A program made the position numbers and the translations under genes. 64,000 nt of DNA from an uncultured Methanosarcinales archaeon (lineage in GTDB: Archaea > Nanobdellota > Nanobdellia > Woesearchaeales > JAGWAF01). Each line of letters opens with the position of its first letter. Position 1 is the stretch's first letter. This document shows, piece by piece, positions 41,345 to 64,000 of this stretch. Where the stretch lies: NCBI GenBank assembly GCA_964359785.1, contig CAYHWL010000001.1:2422-66421 (forward strand). The letters run 5' to 3'. The notes beneath the pieces were generated by a model. It worked only from the letters and a program-made list of their open reading frames with translations. It did not search any database and was not told the DNA's origin.

Positions 41345-42151
41345 TTACTTTCCAATTGGTTTCATGCCTTTCCATGCGGTGTCAAAGAGGCTCTCTACCG
41401 CGCTGGCGAAGAATGGCGTGTTGACCCAGACTCCTATGTCATAGATTGGGTGCACGTCCTTGTCATCAAGGACCATGAATACCATCTGTTTGCCATCGAC
41501 TATGGCGAAGCGTGCTCGGCTGTCGGTCTCGCGGATCTCTGCATATGGCGCGATTTCGCTCACAGCCGCCCTGGTGTCTTTGTTGCTAGGTGAGGCGATC
41601 CTGATTTTGACCCCTTTCTTTTTGAGTTTCTCAAACACGGGTTTCAAGGAATCCGCTTTTCGGATGAGTCCTTGGGCAGTCGTCATCAGTGTGACTGATT
41701 TCTCCGCATTTTTGATCGCGAGTTCAAGATGCGCGTAAAGGTTCTGTCTTCCTCGCAGTGATCCTGACAGTTCGGTAGGGTCGATCATCTCGACGCCTTG
41801 ATTGTGCAATGCGCTTAATTCCTCTAAGACATCTGTGCTTTTTAGGTCTTCAAGCCTTCGCACTCGCTCTTCGGCTTCCACTTTGGTGTTTTTCTTGACA
41901 CGTTCAACCACTTCAGTGGGTGCGACTGCGATATACTTGATAGGTTTTCCAAGTTTCATGACGACATATCCACGTTTCTCTAATGATTCAAGGACATCGT
42001 ATGCTCGACTTCTTGGCACGTCGGCCAAGTCAGATAGTTCTCCTGCGGTCGCGACACCACGTGACAGCAACGCGGCCCATATTTTCACTTCGTATAGGTT
42101 CAAATTGAAGAGCCTTCGCAATTTCGATAAGAATTCGTCTTTTACGAGCAT
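41345..42151 (-). CDS. TrmB family transcriptional regulator
   Basis: N-terminal wHTH (LYEVKIWAALLSRGVATAGELSDLADVPRSRAYDVLESLEKRGYV) plus a C-terminal TrmB domain. It is a paralog of 60279..61058. Confidence 0.85.
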   Translation of the reverse strand: MLVKDEFLSKLRRLFNLNLYEVKIWAALLSRGVATAGELSDLADVPRSRAYDVLESLEKRGYVVMKLGKPIKYIAVAPTEVVERVKKNTKVEAEERVRRLEDLKSTDVLEELSALHNQGVEMIDPTELSGSLRGRQNLYAHLELAIKNAEKSVTLMTTAQGLIRKADSLKPVFEKLKKKGVKIRIASPSNKDTRAAVSEIAPYAEIRETDSRARFAIVDGKQMVFMVLDDKDVHPIYDIGVWVNTPFFASAVESLFDTAWKGMKPIGK

Positions 42152-60278: not shown

Positions 60279-61058
60279 TCAGTACTTCAAAAATGATTTC
60301 TCGAGAGATTGCGCAAAGTATGGGCTATTGACCCAAATCCCCACATCATAGCTTGGATGGGTCGTTTTATCAGACATTAGCATAAAAAGCACTTCTTTGC
60401 CATCCACGATCAAATATCTTCCCAATAGTTCTGATGTGTTTTTGACATTCGCGAATTCTCGGAGTGTTTCGACAGATTTTTGCGTGTGTTTGTTCACTGG
60501 CGCAAGGACTGTGATTGATACCCCTTTGTTTTTAGATTTGGAAAAGACGCCTTTTAGAGTTTCTGACTTTCGATTGATGCCATCTTCAGTGGTCACCAGG
60601 ATGACTGATTTCTCTGCATGCTTTAGCATGCTTTCTATATGATCGATTATATTTGACCTTCCTTTGATTGCACCTGTAAGTTCAGCAGGTTCAACCATCT
60701 CAATGCCCTTAGAATGGAGTAATTGAAGTTCTGAGAGGATATCTGACCCTTTTAATCCTTCGATTAGTTTGGATTGTTTCTGGGCGTCTTCAATCACTTT
60801 TTTTTGCACTCTTTCTATGACCGCGCTTGGAGGCACTGCGATATATTTGATTGGTTTGCCCAATTTTGTGATGATAAAACCTTTTCTTTCAAGGCTTTCG
60901 AGGACATCGTATGATCTTGATCTTGGGACATTGGCTATATCTGATAATTCCCCTGCACTTGATACTCCTCGTGAGAGCAATGCGGTCCAGAGTTTACTTT
61001 CGTAGCTGTTAAGGCCAAAATCTTTGAGTTTGTGCAAGAATTCTTTCTGAACAATCAT
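60279..61058 (-). CDS. TrmB family transcriptional regulator (paralog of 41345..42151)
   Basis: Start moved to MIVQKEFLHK, with a GGAGGA SD 7 nt upstream. About 55% identity to the other TrmB paralog across the wHTH and C-terminal domain. Confidence 0.8.
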   Translation of the reverse strand: MIVQKEFLHKLKDFGLNSYESKLWTALLSRGVSSAGELSDIANVPRSRSYDVLESLERKGFIITKLGKPIKYIAVPPSAVIERVQKKVIEDAQKQSKLIEGLKGSDILSELQLLHSKGIEMVEPAELTGAIKGRSNIIDHIESMLKHAEKSVILVTTEDGINRKSETLKGVFSKSKNKGVSITVLAPVNKHTQKSVETLREFANVKNTSELLGRYLIVDGKEVLFMLMSDKTTHPSYDVGIWVNSPYFAQSLEKSFLKY

Positions 61059-61159
61059 GATTTTTCCTCCATTTGTGGGCTGTCGTGGGGAAAGGCGAAT
61101 AGTATATAAATATGAGCGAAAGTTGTTATTAGAGAGTAGCAAAAACATCATAAGCAATG

Positions 61160-61503
61160 GATCTGCCACCCCTTCATTTCCTCTGCAAACCCACCCACAT
61201 CCAAATCACAGATTTCATACGTTTCTTGATGAAAACTAAGAGATTCCTTATTTTAAAGAAAAGAGTTAGGCACTATTTATTTATTATTATATAGAAAAGA
61301 TATATATATAATATAATATATCGTCAATATCCAATAGAAATCCCAAAAAACGCCTATATCGCGTTCTTTTAGCCAAAATTTCAATCCACCCGTTCGAAAA
61401 ACCCATTTTCCATCGGAAACGATGGGGTCTCCCTTTCAAACTCTCAAAACGAAATACATTAAAACCTCCTCTTCACTTGGAACTGTATTAGAGGGGTGGA
61501 TAG
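61160..61503. other. probable replication origin (oriC): ORB element, mini-ORB and AT-rich DUE upstream of orc1/cdc6
   Basis: ORB at 61408..61432 reads tTTCCAtcGGAAACGAtgGGGTctcc (dyad plus G-string). An inverted mini-ORB at 61166..61186 reads, on the minus strand, gcagaGGAAAtGAaGGGGTgg. An AT-rich stretch lies at 61270..61330. Confidence 0.6.
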
Positions 61504-62715
61504 ATGGCAAAATCAGTAGATAATATCTTCGAGCAATTCTTAGCAAGCAAATCTCTGTTCAAGAATAAGAGGGTGCTGCAGGCTAATTATACTCCCACTA
61601 CAATCGCTCATAGGGAAGATGAGATCTCATTGATAGCAAAGACGCTTGCTCCTGCGTTGAAATGTGATCGGCCCTCAAATCTCTTCATCTATGGTAAGAC
61701 TGGGACAGGCAAGACCGTCTCTGTTAGATACGTCGTCAACTCTCTCAAGCAGATTGCCCAGGAGAAGAATATTCCGCTAAAGCCAATATACATCAATTGC
61801 AAACTCAAGAAAGTGGCAGACACAGAGTATCGTATCATCGCGCAGATCGCGCGGGAATTTGGTAAGGATATTCCTGCCACAGGTTTGCCTACAGAGGAGA
61901 TCTACAATATCTTCTATCAAGTCTTAGACGAGAAAGCGCAGATAGTCCTTCTCGTATTAGATGAGATTGATCAGCTGGTCCAAAAGACAGGTGATGAGAT
62001 CCTCTACAATCTGACCAGGCTAAATACCGAATTGCATCAGGCGCAGATCTGCCTTGTGGGGATCTCAAATGATGTGACATTCACCGATACTCTTGATCCA
62101 AGAGTGAAGTCCAGCTTGAGTGAGGAGGAGATGATTTTTCCGCCATATAACGCGACTCAGCTTCAGAAGATTCTTGAGAATCGTGCGAAGGATGCTTTCA
62201 ATGACGACTCTATTGAGAATGGCGTTTTGGAGAAATGCGCCGCCTTCGCAGCGCGTGAGCATGGCGATGCCCGTAGGGCTCTTGAGCTTCTTCGAGTCGC
62301 TGGAGAATTGGCTGAAAGAGATAATGTGCCAAAAGTGGCGGTTAGCCATCTTGATCTTGCGGAGGATAAGATCGAACGTGATCGTATTGTGGATATTGTA
62401 GCTGCGCAACCTAAGCAATTCCAGGTCGCTTTATTTGTCATTTTGAGACTCTATGAGAGGCGCAAGGAGATGCTGTTCACAGGCGAGGTCTATGAGAATT
62501 ACAAGAATCTTTGTCAGAAAGTGCAATTGCGTCCTCTCACTCAAAGAAGGATATCTGATATCATCCAGGAGATGGATATGCTTGGTATCATTAATGCAAA
62601 GATAGTCTCTAAAGGAAGATATGGCAGGTCAAGAGATATCAAGGTCTCTCTTCCTATTTCAGTAGTGGAGAATATTCTTACCACCCTTGATGAGAAACTG
62701 GGGGTGGAACTATAA
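61504..62715 (+). CDS. cdc6: Orc1/Cdc6 replication initiator
   Basis: AAA+ Walker A GKTGTGKT, Walker B DEID, and a C-terminal winged helix. Confidence 0.9.
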   Translation: MAKSVDNIFEQFLASKSLFKNKRVLQANYTPTTIAHREDEISLIAKTLAPALKCDRPSNLFIYGKTGTGKTVSVRYVVNSLKQIAQEKNIPLKPIYINCKLKKVADTEYRIIAQIAREFGKDIPATGLPTEEIYNIFYQVLDEKAQIVLLVLDEIDQLVQKTGDEILYNLTRLNTELHQAQICLVGISNDVTFTDTLDPRVKSSLSEEEMIFPPYNATQLQKILENRAKDAFNDDSIENGVLEKCAAFAAREHGDARRALELLRVAGELAERDNVPKVAVSHLDLAEDKIERDRIVDIVAAQPKQFQVALFVILRLYERRKEMLFTGEVYENYKNLCQKVQLRPLTQRRISDIIQEMDMLGIINAKIVSKGRYGRSRDIKVSLPISVVENILTTLDEKLGVEL

Positions 62716-62756
62716 CTGATGTGATCGCTAGCAAAAAATTGATTGTGGAGTATTGT

Positions 62757-64000
62757 ATGCGCAATAGCATTCTGCTTCCTTTTGATACTTTCGAGGCCCT
62801 CGAAGAAGGTGAGGTAGTGTCCTTGAGAAGCGCGACTCTGGCGCCGCCTTCGACTTTTCAGGAGCGTCTTGCTTCGATTCTAGGTGAACGCTCCCAAAGG
62901 TTGGCTAGGCTCTCCTCTCCTCTTATCCAGCCAAAGATGGAGGGTGTCAAGGTGTTATCGACTTATCAGGAGGAGCCAAAGAAAAGGTCCTATCAGGATT
63001 TTGTCGCTTTCTTCAATAGCAGGTATTATGCTTTGGAGAAGATCCTTCGTAACCGTCAGGAGCTTTCAGGTGTCATCAGTATTGGTAGGGTAGCAGGCAA
63101 GAAAGATCGTGAGAACGTTGCTATCATTGGCATAATCTCCAGTAAATCCACTACAAAAAATGGCAATATCATCCTCAAATTGGAGGATCCTACCGGTGAG
63201 ATCAATGTTTTATTCTCTCTTAAGCGTGTTGATATGTTCGCGTTAGCCAAGGATCTCGTATTGGATGAGGTTATCGGCATCACAGGTCAATTCTCCGAGT
63301 CGCCCGAATCAAAGGGCAAGTGGGTTATGGCAAATAACGTCTTGTTCCCTGATATCCCTCTGACAAAAGAGCTCAAAAAATCTCCGGAGGAGGGTTATGC
63401 TATTTTTCTCTCGGATCTTCATATAGGCTCTAAAGAATTTTTGGAGGAGAATTTCATAAAGATGATCAAGTGGATAGCCGGTGAGCTTGGCAGCGAATCT
63501 CAAAAGGATATAGCCAAGAGGATCAAGTATGTTTTCATCGCAGGTGATTTGGTTGAAGGCATTGGGATCTATCAAGGTCAGGAGAATTCTCTTGCGATTC
63601 GGGATATTTTCAAGCAGTATGATCGTTGCGCGGAGCTCCTCTCAAATATCCCTGATCATATCCCTTTAGTGATCTGTCCTGGCAATCATGATGCTTTGAG
63701 GATCACTGAGCCTCAGCCTGCTTTGTATAAGGATTTCTCCAAGGCGATGTGGGATCTCAAGAATGTCTATCTTCTCTCGAATCCTTGCATGGTGAATATC
63801 GACTCAAGTGATGTGTTTCCAGGTTTTGACGTGCTGATGTATCATGGCTATAGCTTCGATTACTATGCCGCAAATGTGGACTCCATCCGTCAGAATGGGG
63901 GTTATGACCGTGCTGATCTTATCATGAAATTCCTCCTTCAGAGGAGGCACTTGGCTCCGACTCATACTAGTACGCAGTATCTGCCTGATACTAGGAGGGA
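62757..64000 (+). CDS. DNA polymerase II (PolD) small subunit DP1, truncated by the window edge
   Basis: OB-fold region followed by calcineurin-like phosphoesterase motifs (…DLHIG…, GDLVEG, ICPGNHD, GYSFDYY). Not in the ORF track because it has no stop within the window. Confidence 0.85.
   Translation, partial: MRNSILLPFDTFEALEEGEVVSLRSATLAPPSTFQERLASILGERSQRLARLSSPLIQPKMEGVKVLSTYQEEPKKRSYQDFVAFFNSRYYALEKILRNRQELSGVISIGRVAGKKDRENVAIIGIISSKSTTKNGNIILKLEDPTGEINVLFSLKRVDMFALAKDLVLDEVIGITGQFSESPESKGKWVMANNVLFPDIPLTKELKKSPEEGYAIFLSDLHIGSKEFLEENFIKMIKWIAGELGSESQKDIAKRIKYVFIAGDLVEGIGIYQGQENSLAIRDIFKQYDRCAELLSNIPDHIPLVICPGNHDALRITEPQPALYKDFSKAMWDLKNVYLLSNPCMVNIDSSDVFPGFDVLMYHGYSFDYYAANVDSIRQNGGYDRADLIMKFLLQRRHLAPTHTSTQYLPDTRR

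Follow-up and report, generated by a model that had tools for sequence, protein, structure and literature searches.

Origins built from origin recognition boxes (ORBs) next to an orc1 gene are textbook knowledge in the archaea. In co-crystal structures, the winged helix of the initiator sits on the TTCCA..GAAA dyad of the box while the initiator-specific motif of its AAA+ domain sits on the GGGGT string. A review of the field describes the archaeal origin as an AT-rich duplex unwinding element (DUE) with ORBs on its flanks (PMC5333045). At Sulfolobus oriC1, one Orc1-1 monomer binds each ORB with a fixed orientation; the AT-rich DUE lies between ORB2 and ORB3, which are inverted relative to each other, and origin activity is lost when either box is mutated. 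Orc1-1 bound there in its ATP form brings MCM to the DUE, and the hexamers are placed with their N-terminal tiers toward one another (PMC12141716). In Pyrococcus (P. abyssi), the genes and the origin follow the order oriC, cdc6, dp1 (PMC1904270). Genomes of the phylum concerned here have been rotated to the ORC1/Cdc6 gene in work that does not describe ORBs (bioRxiv 10.64898/2026.05.13.725050), and our search of the literature returned no paper that mentions "origin recognition box" together with DPANN.

The window, by which we mean the whole 64-kb stretch of DNA that was analyzed, has its largest non-coding gap, of 445 bp, between a TrmB-family gene on the minus strand and orc1/cdc6 on the plus strand. 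The interval from about 61160 to 61435 within this gap is very probably the chromosomal oriC, of the canonical Orc1-1/ORB type, of a DPANN (Woesearchaeota-like) archaeon. The parts of the locus on which this reading depends are the following.

60279 to 61058, minus strand: gene for a TrmB-family HTH regulator of 259 aa (Pfam TrmB, 7.3e-20; Regulator_TrmB, 2.4e-07)
61168 to 61189, minus strand: ORB-L, TTTGCAGAGGAAATGAAGGGGT, 22 nt, a match to the 14-mer described below; 22.3 bits with the matrix made from other genomes
61222 to 61361, no strand: AT-rich region by GC content and stability, with a putative duplex unwinding element and helicase-loading zone in its core at 61272-61331
61330 to 61341, plus strand: candidate mini-ORB, TCCAATAGAAAT, a dyad without a G-string at the right edge of the AT-rich core, oriented as ORB-R
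61407 to 61428, plus strand: ORB-R, TTTCCATCGGAAACGATGGGGT, 22 nt, 23.8 bits with the same matrix and the top site in the window
61504 to 62715, plus strand: orc1/cdc6, encoding an Orc1-1-type initiator of 403 aa (Pfam Cdc6_C, Cdc6_lid and AAA_22)
62721 to 64000, plus strand: gene for DP1, the PolD small subunit, which runs past the window end (Pfam DNA_pol_E_B, Metallophos and OB fold)

The original prediction had placed the origin directly upstream of orc1/cdc6, with PolD DP1 after that gene, and both gene assignments were borne out. In addition to its Pfam domains, the Orc1 protein scored 526.4 bits against the NCBIfam ORC1-type equivalog, for which the cutoff is 501. Its best solved relatives were S. 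solfataricus Orc1-1 (2qby_A, 2.5e-102) and A. pernix ORC1 (2v1u_A, 1.4e-96), to both of which it aligned from end to end, including the GRYG(R/K) wing of the winged helix, whereas matches to Orc1-3 (2.3e-45) and ORC2 (1.2e-19) were far weaker. No second orc1 paralogue was found in the 64-kb window. DP1 begins six bases past the orc1 stop codon and, besides its Pfam matches, was recognized by the NCBIfam model for the DNA polymerase II small subunit (4e-104). On the other side, the TrmB-family gene is divergent from orc1 and forms the left flank of the origin gap; its product aligned from end to end with the TrmBL2 and TrmBL1 profiles, at scores far under their cutoffs. Genes further left encode a tRNA-splicing endonuclease, an RNase Z-like protein, Hjc, TFE and a member of the IF-2B family. 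Rfam and tRNA scans of the whole window gave no matches.

When both strands of the 64 kb were searched for the 14-mer GGAAAYGANGGGGT with at most one mismatch, we found two matches, ORB-L and ORB-R, compared to 0.11 expected from shuffles. ORB-L carries a single mismatch, which falls in the outer dyad arm (TTGCA, not TTCCA). The weight matrix derived from relatives separated the same two sites from everything else, as the next best score in the window was 10.1 bits. An ORB had been claimed at 61408-61432; the corresponding 26-mer, tTTCCAtcGGAAACGAtgGGGTctcc, is present, but its true start is one base to the left, giving 61407-61432. The left element had been taken for an inverted partial box or mini-ORB. 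An inverted ORB copy does lie at 61168-61189, but it is a near-full ORB and not a mini-ORB, since its G-string is present: the minus strand reads GGAAATGAAGGGGT over 61168-61181 and, in the extended reading from 61189 down to 61168, the full box listed above. The two boxes are identical at 17 of 22 positions. They are arranged as an inverted pair, with their dyad halves toward the AT-rich core and their G-strings outward, that of ORB-R pointing toward orc1. Their inner ends are 217 bp apart; the orc1 start lies 76 nt past ORB-R, and ORB-L is 315 nt upstream of orc1. Judged from their sequences, and from the full-length likeness of the Orc1 protein, wing included, to 2qby_A and 2v1u_A, both of which are ORB-bound structures, ORB-L and ORB-R are predicted Orc1 binding sites, each expected to take up one monomer.

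The DNA between the boxes proved to be as AT-rich as had been proposed. The string quoted for it corresponds to 61274-61321, contains four G and no C in 48 nt, and falls inside the least stable DNA of the window. The surrounding region, 61222-61361, is the sole part of the 64-kb window in which the GC content over 80 nt is 22% or less (window mean 46%), and in the core it is 12-13% per 60 nt. Nearest-neighbor energies single out the same place: the least stable 60-mer of the window is 61272-61331 at -54.5 kcal/mol (z 5.6), set against a mean of -80.6 kcal/mol with a standard deviation of 4.6 for 60-mers of the window and -61.8 kcal/mol for the second least stable. Because the core is 170-230 nt from the start codons on both sides, it is not simply a shared core promoter.

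Related loci were collected by means of the Orc1 protein. A one-genome-per-species collection yielded 21 loci, with labels that include Woesearchaeota, Pacearchaeota, Nanoarchaeota, Aenigmatarchaeota, Nanosalinarum, Archaeoglobaceae, Thermoplasmatales and Methanobacteriota. The closest genome match to Orc1 was a groundwater Woesearchaeota MAG (L001) at 71% identity, and the best metagenomic match reached 61%; with 71% as the best identity, the window comes from a DPANN archaeon that has no near relative among sequenced genomes, and no gene on record encodes exactly the same Orc1 product. We searched the genome loci with the right half of the box only, GAAAY-N-A-N-GGGGT, and the matches clustered immediately upstream of orc1. 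At the correct distance to the left of these matches we observed TTCCA or CTCCA, though this arm was absent from the search pattern. A weight matrix was made from 29 orc1-upstream sites of the 21 related genomes, with the window left out, and its consensus is TTCCA-N3-GAAAY-N3-GGGGT. We applied this matrix, with a match threshold of 13 bits, to a second set of 34 usable independent metagenomic loci, none of which had been used in the matrix. ORB density in these loci was 4.9/kb in the 600 bp upstream of orc1 and 0.08/kb elsewhere, an ∼60-fold difference. Moreover, a (-)...(+) ORB pair in the order of the window was found in 22 of the 30 metagenomic loci that have at least 350 bp of upstream sequence.

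At the base level, the layout that recurs in relatives runs ORB(-), AT-rich DNA, ORB(+), sometimes extra plus-strand boxes, and then orc1. In most relatives, plus-strand ORBs are found 30-200 nt ahead of orc1, minus-strand ORBs occupy the same relative position as in the window in most related loci, and the GC minimum falls between or beside the ORBs. The gene order is shared as well. In L002, whose Orc1 is 57% identical, Hjc, TFE, TrmB, the gap, orc1 and DP1 follow one another as in the window; the gap measures 441 bp there and 445 bp here, and the boxes stand at corresponding places. Linkage of orc1 to DP1 is common to L001, L002, L004, L005, L009, L012 and L014. We assessed conservation at the motif level because the intergenic DNA can be aligned only over the orc1 promoter block, as was seen with L001, whose contig ends inside the gap. 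Each part of the oriC interpretation that can be tested from sequence alone holds, and the layout recurs upstream of orc1 in most of the related loci.

Set beside Sulfolobus/Saccharolobus oriC1, the locus shows the same plan, with inverted ORBs flanking an AT-rich DUE beside an orc1-1 gene and an initiator of the Orc1-1 class. It differs in having two strong ORBs where Sulfolobus oriC1 has three, and in its dimensions: 217 bp lie between the ORBs here, whereas the whole ORB3-DUE-ORB2 core of S. islandicus spans 130 bp. The conserved box is 21-22 nt here, compared to the 36 bp described for the Sulfolobus ORB (PMC1904270). The ucm element of Sulfolobus, ATTATACAAAC, which is essential there, is absent from the gap; with up to two mismatches allowed, it matched the window 22 times against 17 expected, and none of these matches was in the origin gap.

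The likeness to Pyrococcus and the Thermococcales lies in the order of origin, cdc6/orc1 and dp1 and in an ORB pair that forms an inverted repeat. The box itself resembles P. furiosus ORB1, in which TTCCA-N3-GAAAT-GAA is followed by a G-string (the reverse complement of the printed oligo is TTCCAGTGGAAATGAAACTCTGGGGGG; PMC1904270), except that five extra nucleotides (ACTCT) stand between GAA and the G-string in that 34-bp ORB. The description of the locus as a Pyrococcus-type arrangement was therefore right as to the oriC, cdc6, dp1 order given in PMC1904270 but needs qualification, as the ORBs are 5 nt shorter and the visible dp1 holds no ORB cluster. Pyrococcus has a second cluster inside dp1, whereas none occurs in the 1.28 kb of dp1 visible here: over 62721-64000, no matrix match of at least 8 bits was found, and the dyads there all carry one mismatch and occur at background density. 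Pyrococcus oriC also contains many 13-bp mini-ORBs, compared to at most one exact mini-ORB in our locus. With two strong ORBs, the locus has fewer than either Pyrococcus or Sulfolobus oriC1.

The ORB of A. pernix has a TCCA-N3-GAAAC-N3-GGGGT-like sequence. As at A. pernix oriC1, the box in our window is short, being ∼22 bp there (length according to PMC1904270); oriC1 of that species differs in having four ORBs and ucm, neither of which the window contains. The locus agrees in both sequence and layout with ORB clusters beside orc1 in MAGs of other DPANN and of Thermoplasmatales, Methanobacteriota and Archaeoglobaceae (L001-L060), which combine TTCCA-N3-GAAAY-N3-GGGGT boxes with the sequence ORB(-), AT-rich, ORB(+), orc1. 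Many related loci, mostly labelled Aenigmatarchaeota, carry the palindrome ATAACAnTGTTAT in the AT-rich core, whereas it was not found in the window. Many Aenigmatarchaeota-labelled loci also have a second ORB cluster ∼3.5-4 kb downstream; the equivalent position here is beyond the window end.

By analogy with Sulfolobus oriC1, one Orc1 monomer made from the adjacent gene would bind each ORB with a fixed polarity. Since each box of the inverted pair turns its dyad half inward, the two bound initiators would face each other across the 217 bp that hold the AT-rich core. The ATP-bound Orc1 pair may then recruit MCM hexamers onto the DNA between the ORBs, and melting and the start of bidirectional replication would be expected between the boxes, in or next to 61272-61331. 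We infer these steps, namely Orc1 binding, MCM loading and unwinding at the AT-rich core, from the studied systems, together with the possible autoregulation considered below. Coding bases left of the origin gap are 66% on the minus strand, a bias that fits a leftward fork and is weakly suggestive of one. Cumulative GC skew across the window showed no extreme at 61.3 kb, a position with only 2.7 kb of sequence to its right.

The gap also contains smaller elements close to the two start codons, most of them at the orc1 end.

61104 to 61111, minus strand: TATA-like TTTATATA, 46-53 nt before the start codon of the TrmB-family gene, assigned by eye
61441 to 61467, plus strand: block CTCTCAAAACGAAATACATTAAAACCT kept in the closest relative, L001 (14 identical columns in a row, then CATTAA)
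61444 to 61455, within this block: one-mismatch dyad TCAAAACGAAAT from the dyad scan
61456 to 61464, plus strand: TATA-like ACATTAAAA, within the same block
61462 to 61482, minus strand: weak ORB-like TTCCAAGTGAAGAGGAGGTTT, 8.6 bits, between the TATA-like box and the orc1 start
61491 to 61499, plus strand: Shine-Dalgarno-like GAGGGGTGG, of presumed function, 5 nt before the orc1 ATG; L001 has GGGGTGGA

On sequence grounds, the block at 61441-61467 with ACATTAAAA is probably the orc1 core promoter, and TTTATATA, which lies outside the ORB pair, is probably the core promoter of the TrmB-family gene. The 8.6 bits of TTCCAAGTGAAGAGGAGGTTT are under the mean shuffle maximum, and alone this score is not significant. 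Comparable minus-strand ORB-like elements occur near the orc1 start in L002, L014, L021, L026, L039 and L040. Because relatives have such elements at this place, the degenerate ORB-like sites at the orc1 promoter are possibly sites of Orc1 autoregulation, through which Orc1 may also repress its own gene.

The same elements lend some color to an alternative in which ORB-L and ORB-R are real Orc1 sites but serve mainly as operators for orc1, and perhaps also for the TrmB-family gene, while the origin is dormant or dispensable and replication starts elsewhere or by recombination. ORB-R is just upstream of the putative orc1 promoter, the weak ORB-like elements at 61444-61455 and 61462-61482 overlap that promoter, and the six relatives named above have their own minus-strand elements by the orc1 start. 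In addition, T. kodakarensis is reported to dispense with both Cdc6 and its origin when it replicates (PMC5663688). Since an ORB-bearing origin beside cdc6 is dispensable in that organism, we regard firing at the predicted origin as likely but not certain. We nevertheless consider the operator explanation improbable. Autoregulation leaves unexplained why a box should stand as far upstream of orc1 as ORB-L does, and also why a conserved inverted pair should surround an exceptionally unstable AT-rich core; moreover, the only Orc1 of the window is of the Orc1-1 class, the one by which the conserved origin is defined. To our knowledge, such Orc1 sites serve both roles, as origin and in autoregulation, in all studied cases.

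Archaeal extrachromosomal and integrated elements commonly carry additional orc1/cdc6 genes with an origin beside them, and the multireplicon Haloferax is a case in point (PMC1868953). The origin might have arrived with such an element, whether a plasmid, a virus or another integrated mobile element with its own orc1, and would then not be chromosomal. We think this very improbable. The neighbors are core housekeeping genes of a chromosomal kind, which argue for a chromosome over a mobile element, and distant relatives keep both the linkage of orc1 to DP1 and the order Hjc-TFE-TrmB-orc1-DP1. The Orc1 protein, for its part, is over the ORC1-type equivalog cutoff and nearest to Orc1-1, and the regional GC content of 40-45% is near the window mean.

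A third reading takes the AT-rich stretch for nothing more than the shared promoter of two divergent genes and the boxes for chance matches. In its favor, the DNA between divergent genes is usually rich in A and T, and the gap does contain TATA-like boxes. This reading nevertheless retains hardly any probability, being effectively refuted by the uniqueness of ORB-L and ORB-R in the 64 kb, by their matrix scores and by the metagenomic conservation: box and layout recur in dozens of loci in which the remaining intergenic DNA cannot be aligned. Moreover, each putative TATA box is placed outside the ORB pair, ∼55 nt or less from its own start codon and well apart from the core.

Read as a chromosomal oriC, the locus allows the origin of a Woesearchaeota-like DPANN genome to be annotated base by base. 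It leaves the understanding of archaeal replication initiation unchanged. A defined origin helps to set the coordinates of complete genomes and helps growth-rate estimates from metagenomic read-depth gradients. The comparison further shows that DPANN and several euryarchaeal lineages share a conserved Orc1-1/ORB recognition code, TTCCA-N3-GAAAY-N3-GGGGT. A more specific and rather doubtful proposal, which we offer tentatively, is that this DPANN lineage without a close sequenced relative has a stripped-down two-ORB origin that dispenses with an accessory DUE motif (ucm or ATAACAnTGTTAT) and tolerates an unusually wide spacing of 217 bp, and that the degenerate ORB between the TATA box and the orc1 start couples initiator dosage to origin occupancy. 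If true, the locus would be a minimal natural template on which to reconstitute archaeal helicase loading.

Several further sequence features were considered. A string noticed by eye in the AT-rich cores of the window, L023, L024 and L026, TATAGAAA(A), with ATAGAAG in L025, showed no excess when k-mers were counted against shuffles. The direct repeat CCACCCCTTC / CCACCCGTTC (family D3) was judged to be a chance match, its second copy being without the dyad. With one mismatch allowed, the relaxed dyad pattern was no denser in the origin kilobase than in the other kilobases of the window. Exact matches to T[TC]CA-N3-GAA[AG][CT] numbered seven on both strands of the 64 kb, two of them inside the origin gap, and TCCAATAGAAAT, at 61330-61341, is by its sequence a candidate mini-ORB, weak on its own.

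The palindrome ATAACAnTGTTAT was observed inside the putative duplex unwinding element of many of the orc1-bearing loci from other archaea (L001-L060), often in two copies, as in L010 at 2734-2746 and 2831-2843. In addition to L010, we found it in L003, L008, L011, L013, L016, L017, L018, L021, L027, L030, L037, L038, and others, and several of the loci that bear it are labeled Aenigmatarchaeota. The AT-rich core containing the palindrome lies 90-270 nt upstream of orc1. Upon analysis of 44 distinct AT-rich cores, the 7-mer TATAACA was present in 17, compared with a maximum of 13 across 200 shuffles. When we looked for the palindrome in the window, it was not found. In the other loci it may serve as an accessory site particular to the lineage, comparable to the ucm motif of Sulfolobus.

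By eye, we also noted a string, TATAGAAA(A), followed by (AT/AAT) runs, that the window shares with three of the other loci; in each it lies within the AT-rich core, as listed here.

Occurrences of the string in AT-rich cores
Window, 61290-61300: TATAGAAA(A)
L026, about -427 to -417: TATAGAAA(A)
L024, about -163 to -153: TATAGAAA(A)
L023, about -372 to -362: TATAGAAA(A)
L025, about -275: ATAGAAG only

Since a k-mer comparison with shuffled sequences did not single out this string, which was spotted visually, its recurrence may be due to chance in AT-rich DNA.

In several of the other loci, two or three strong origin recognition boxes (ORBs) form a second cluster about 3.5-4 kb downstream of orc1. 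These boxes score 22-29 bits against the ORB weight matrix and are almost throughout on the minus strand.

Second ORB clusters in other loci
L006, 3771-3885
L007, 6543-6657
L011, 6600-6726
L013, 6435-6549
L018, 4139-4230
L030, L033, L035, and L037, at +3.5 to +4.0 kb, counted from the start of orc1

The cluster is flanked by a gene for a membrane protein of ~420 aa and by the 3′ end of another gene, whose product resembles a family B DNA polymerase at its C-terminus. This arrangement recalls the Thermococcales, where a second ORB cluster lies in dp1. The window ends short of the equivalent position.

Genes and reading frames of the window
60279-61058, minus strand: TrmB-family gene adjoining the origin
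41384-42151, minus strand: its paralogue, 19 kb off, 52% identity
59939-60145, minus strand: small open reading frame, 68 aa
15788-21757, minus strand: very long open reading frame, 1989 aa

The origin-side TrmB-family gene can be aligned to the TrmBL2 profile from one end to the other, at a score of 68 bits that is far under the cutoff of 530, and the linkage of TrmB, origin, and orc1 is common to the window and L002. Since the TrmBL2 of Thermococcales is a chromatin protein, a link between this gene and origin chromatin is conceivable. Over all 64 kb, ARAGORN returned no tRNA gene and Rfam no family at its gathering score. The 68-aa reading frame, which is hydrophobic over an N-terminal stretch and ends in a basic tail, occupies the gap between an IF-2B-family gene and the TrmB-family gene.
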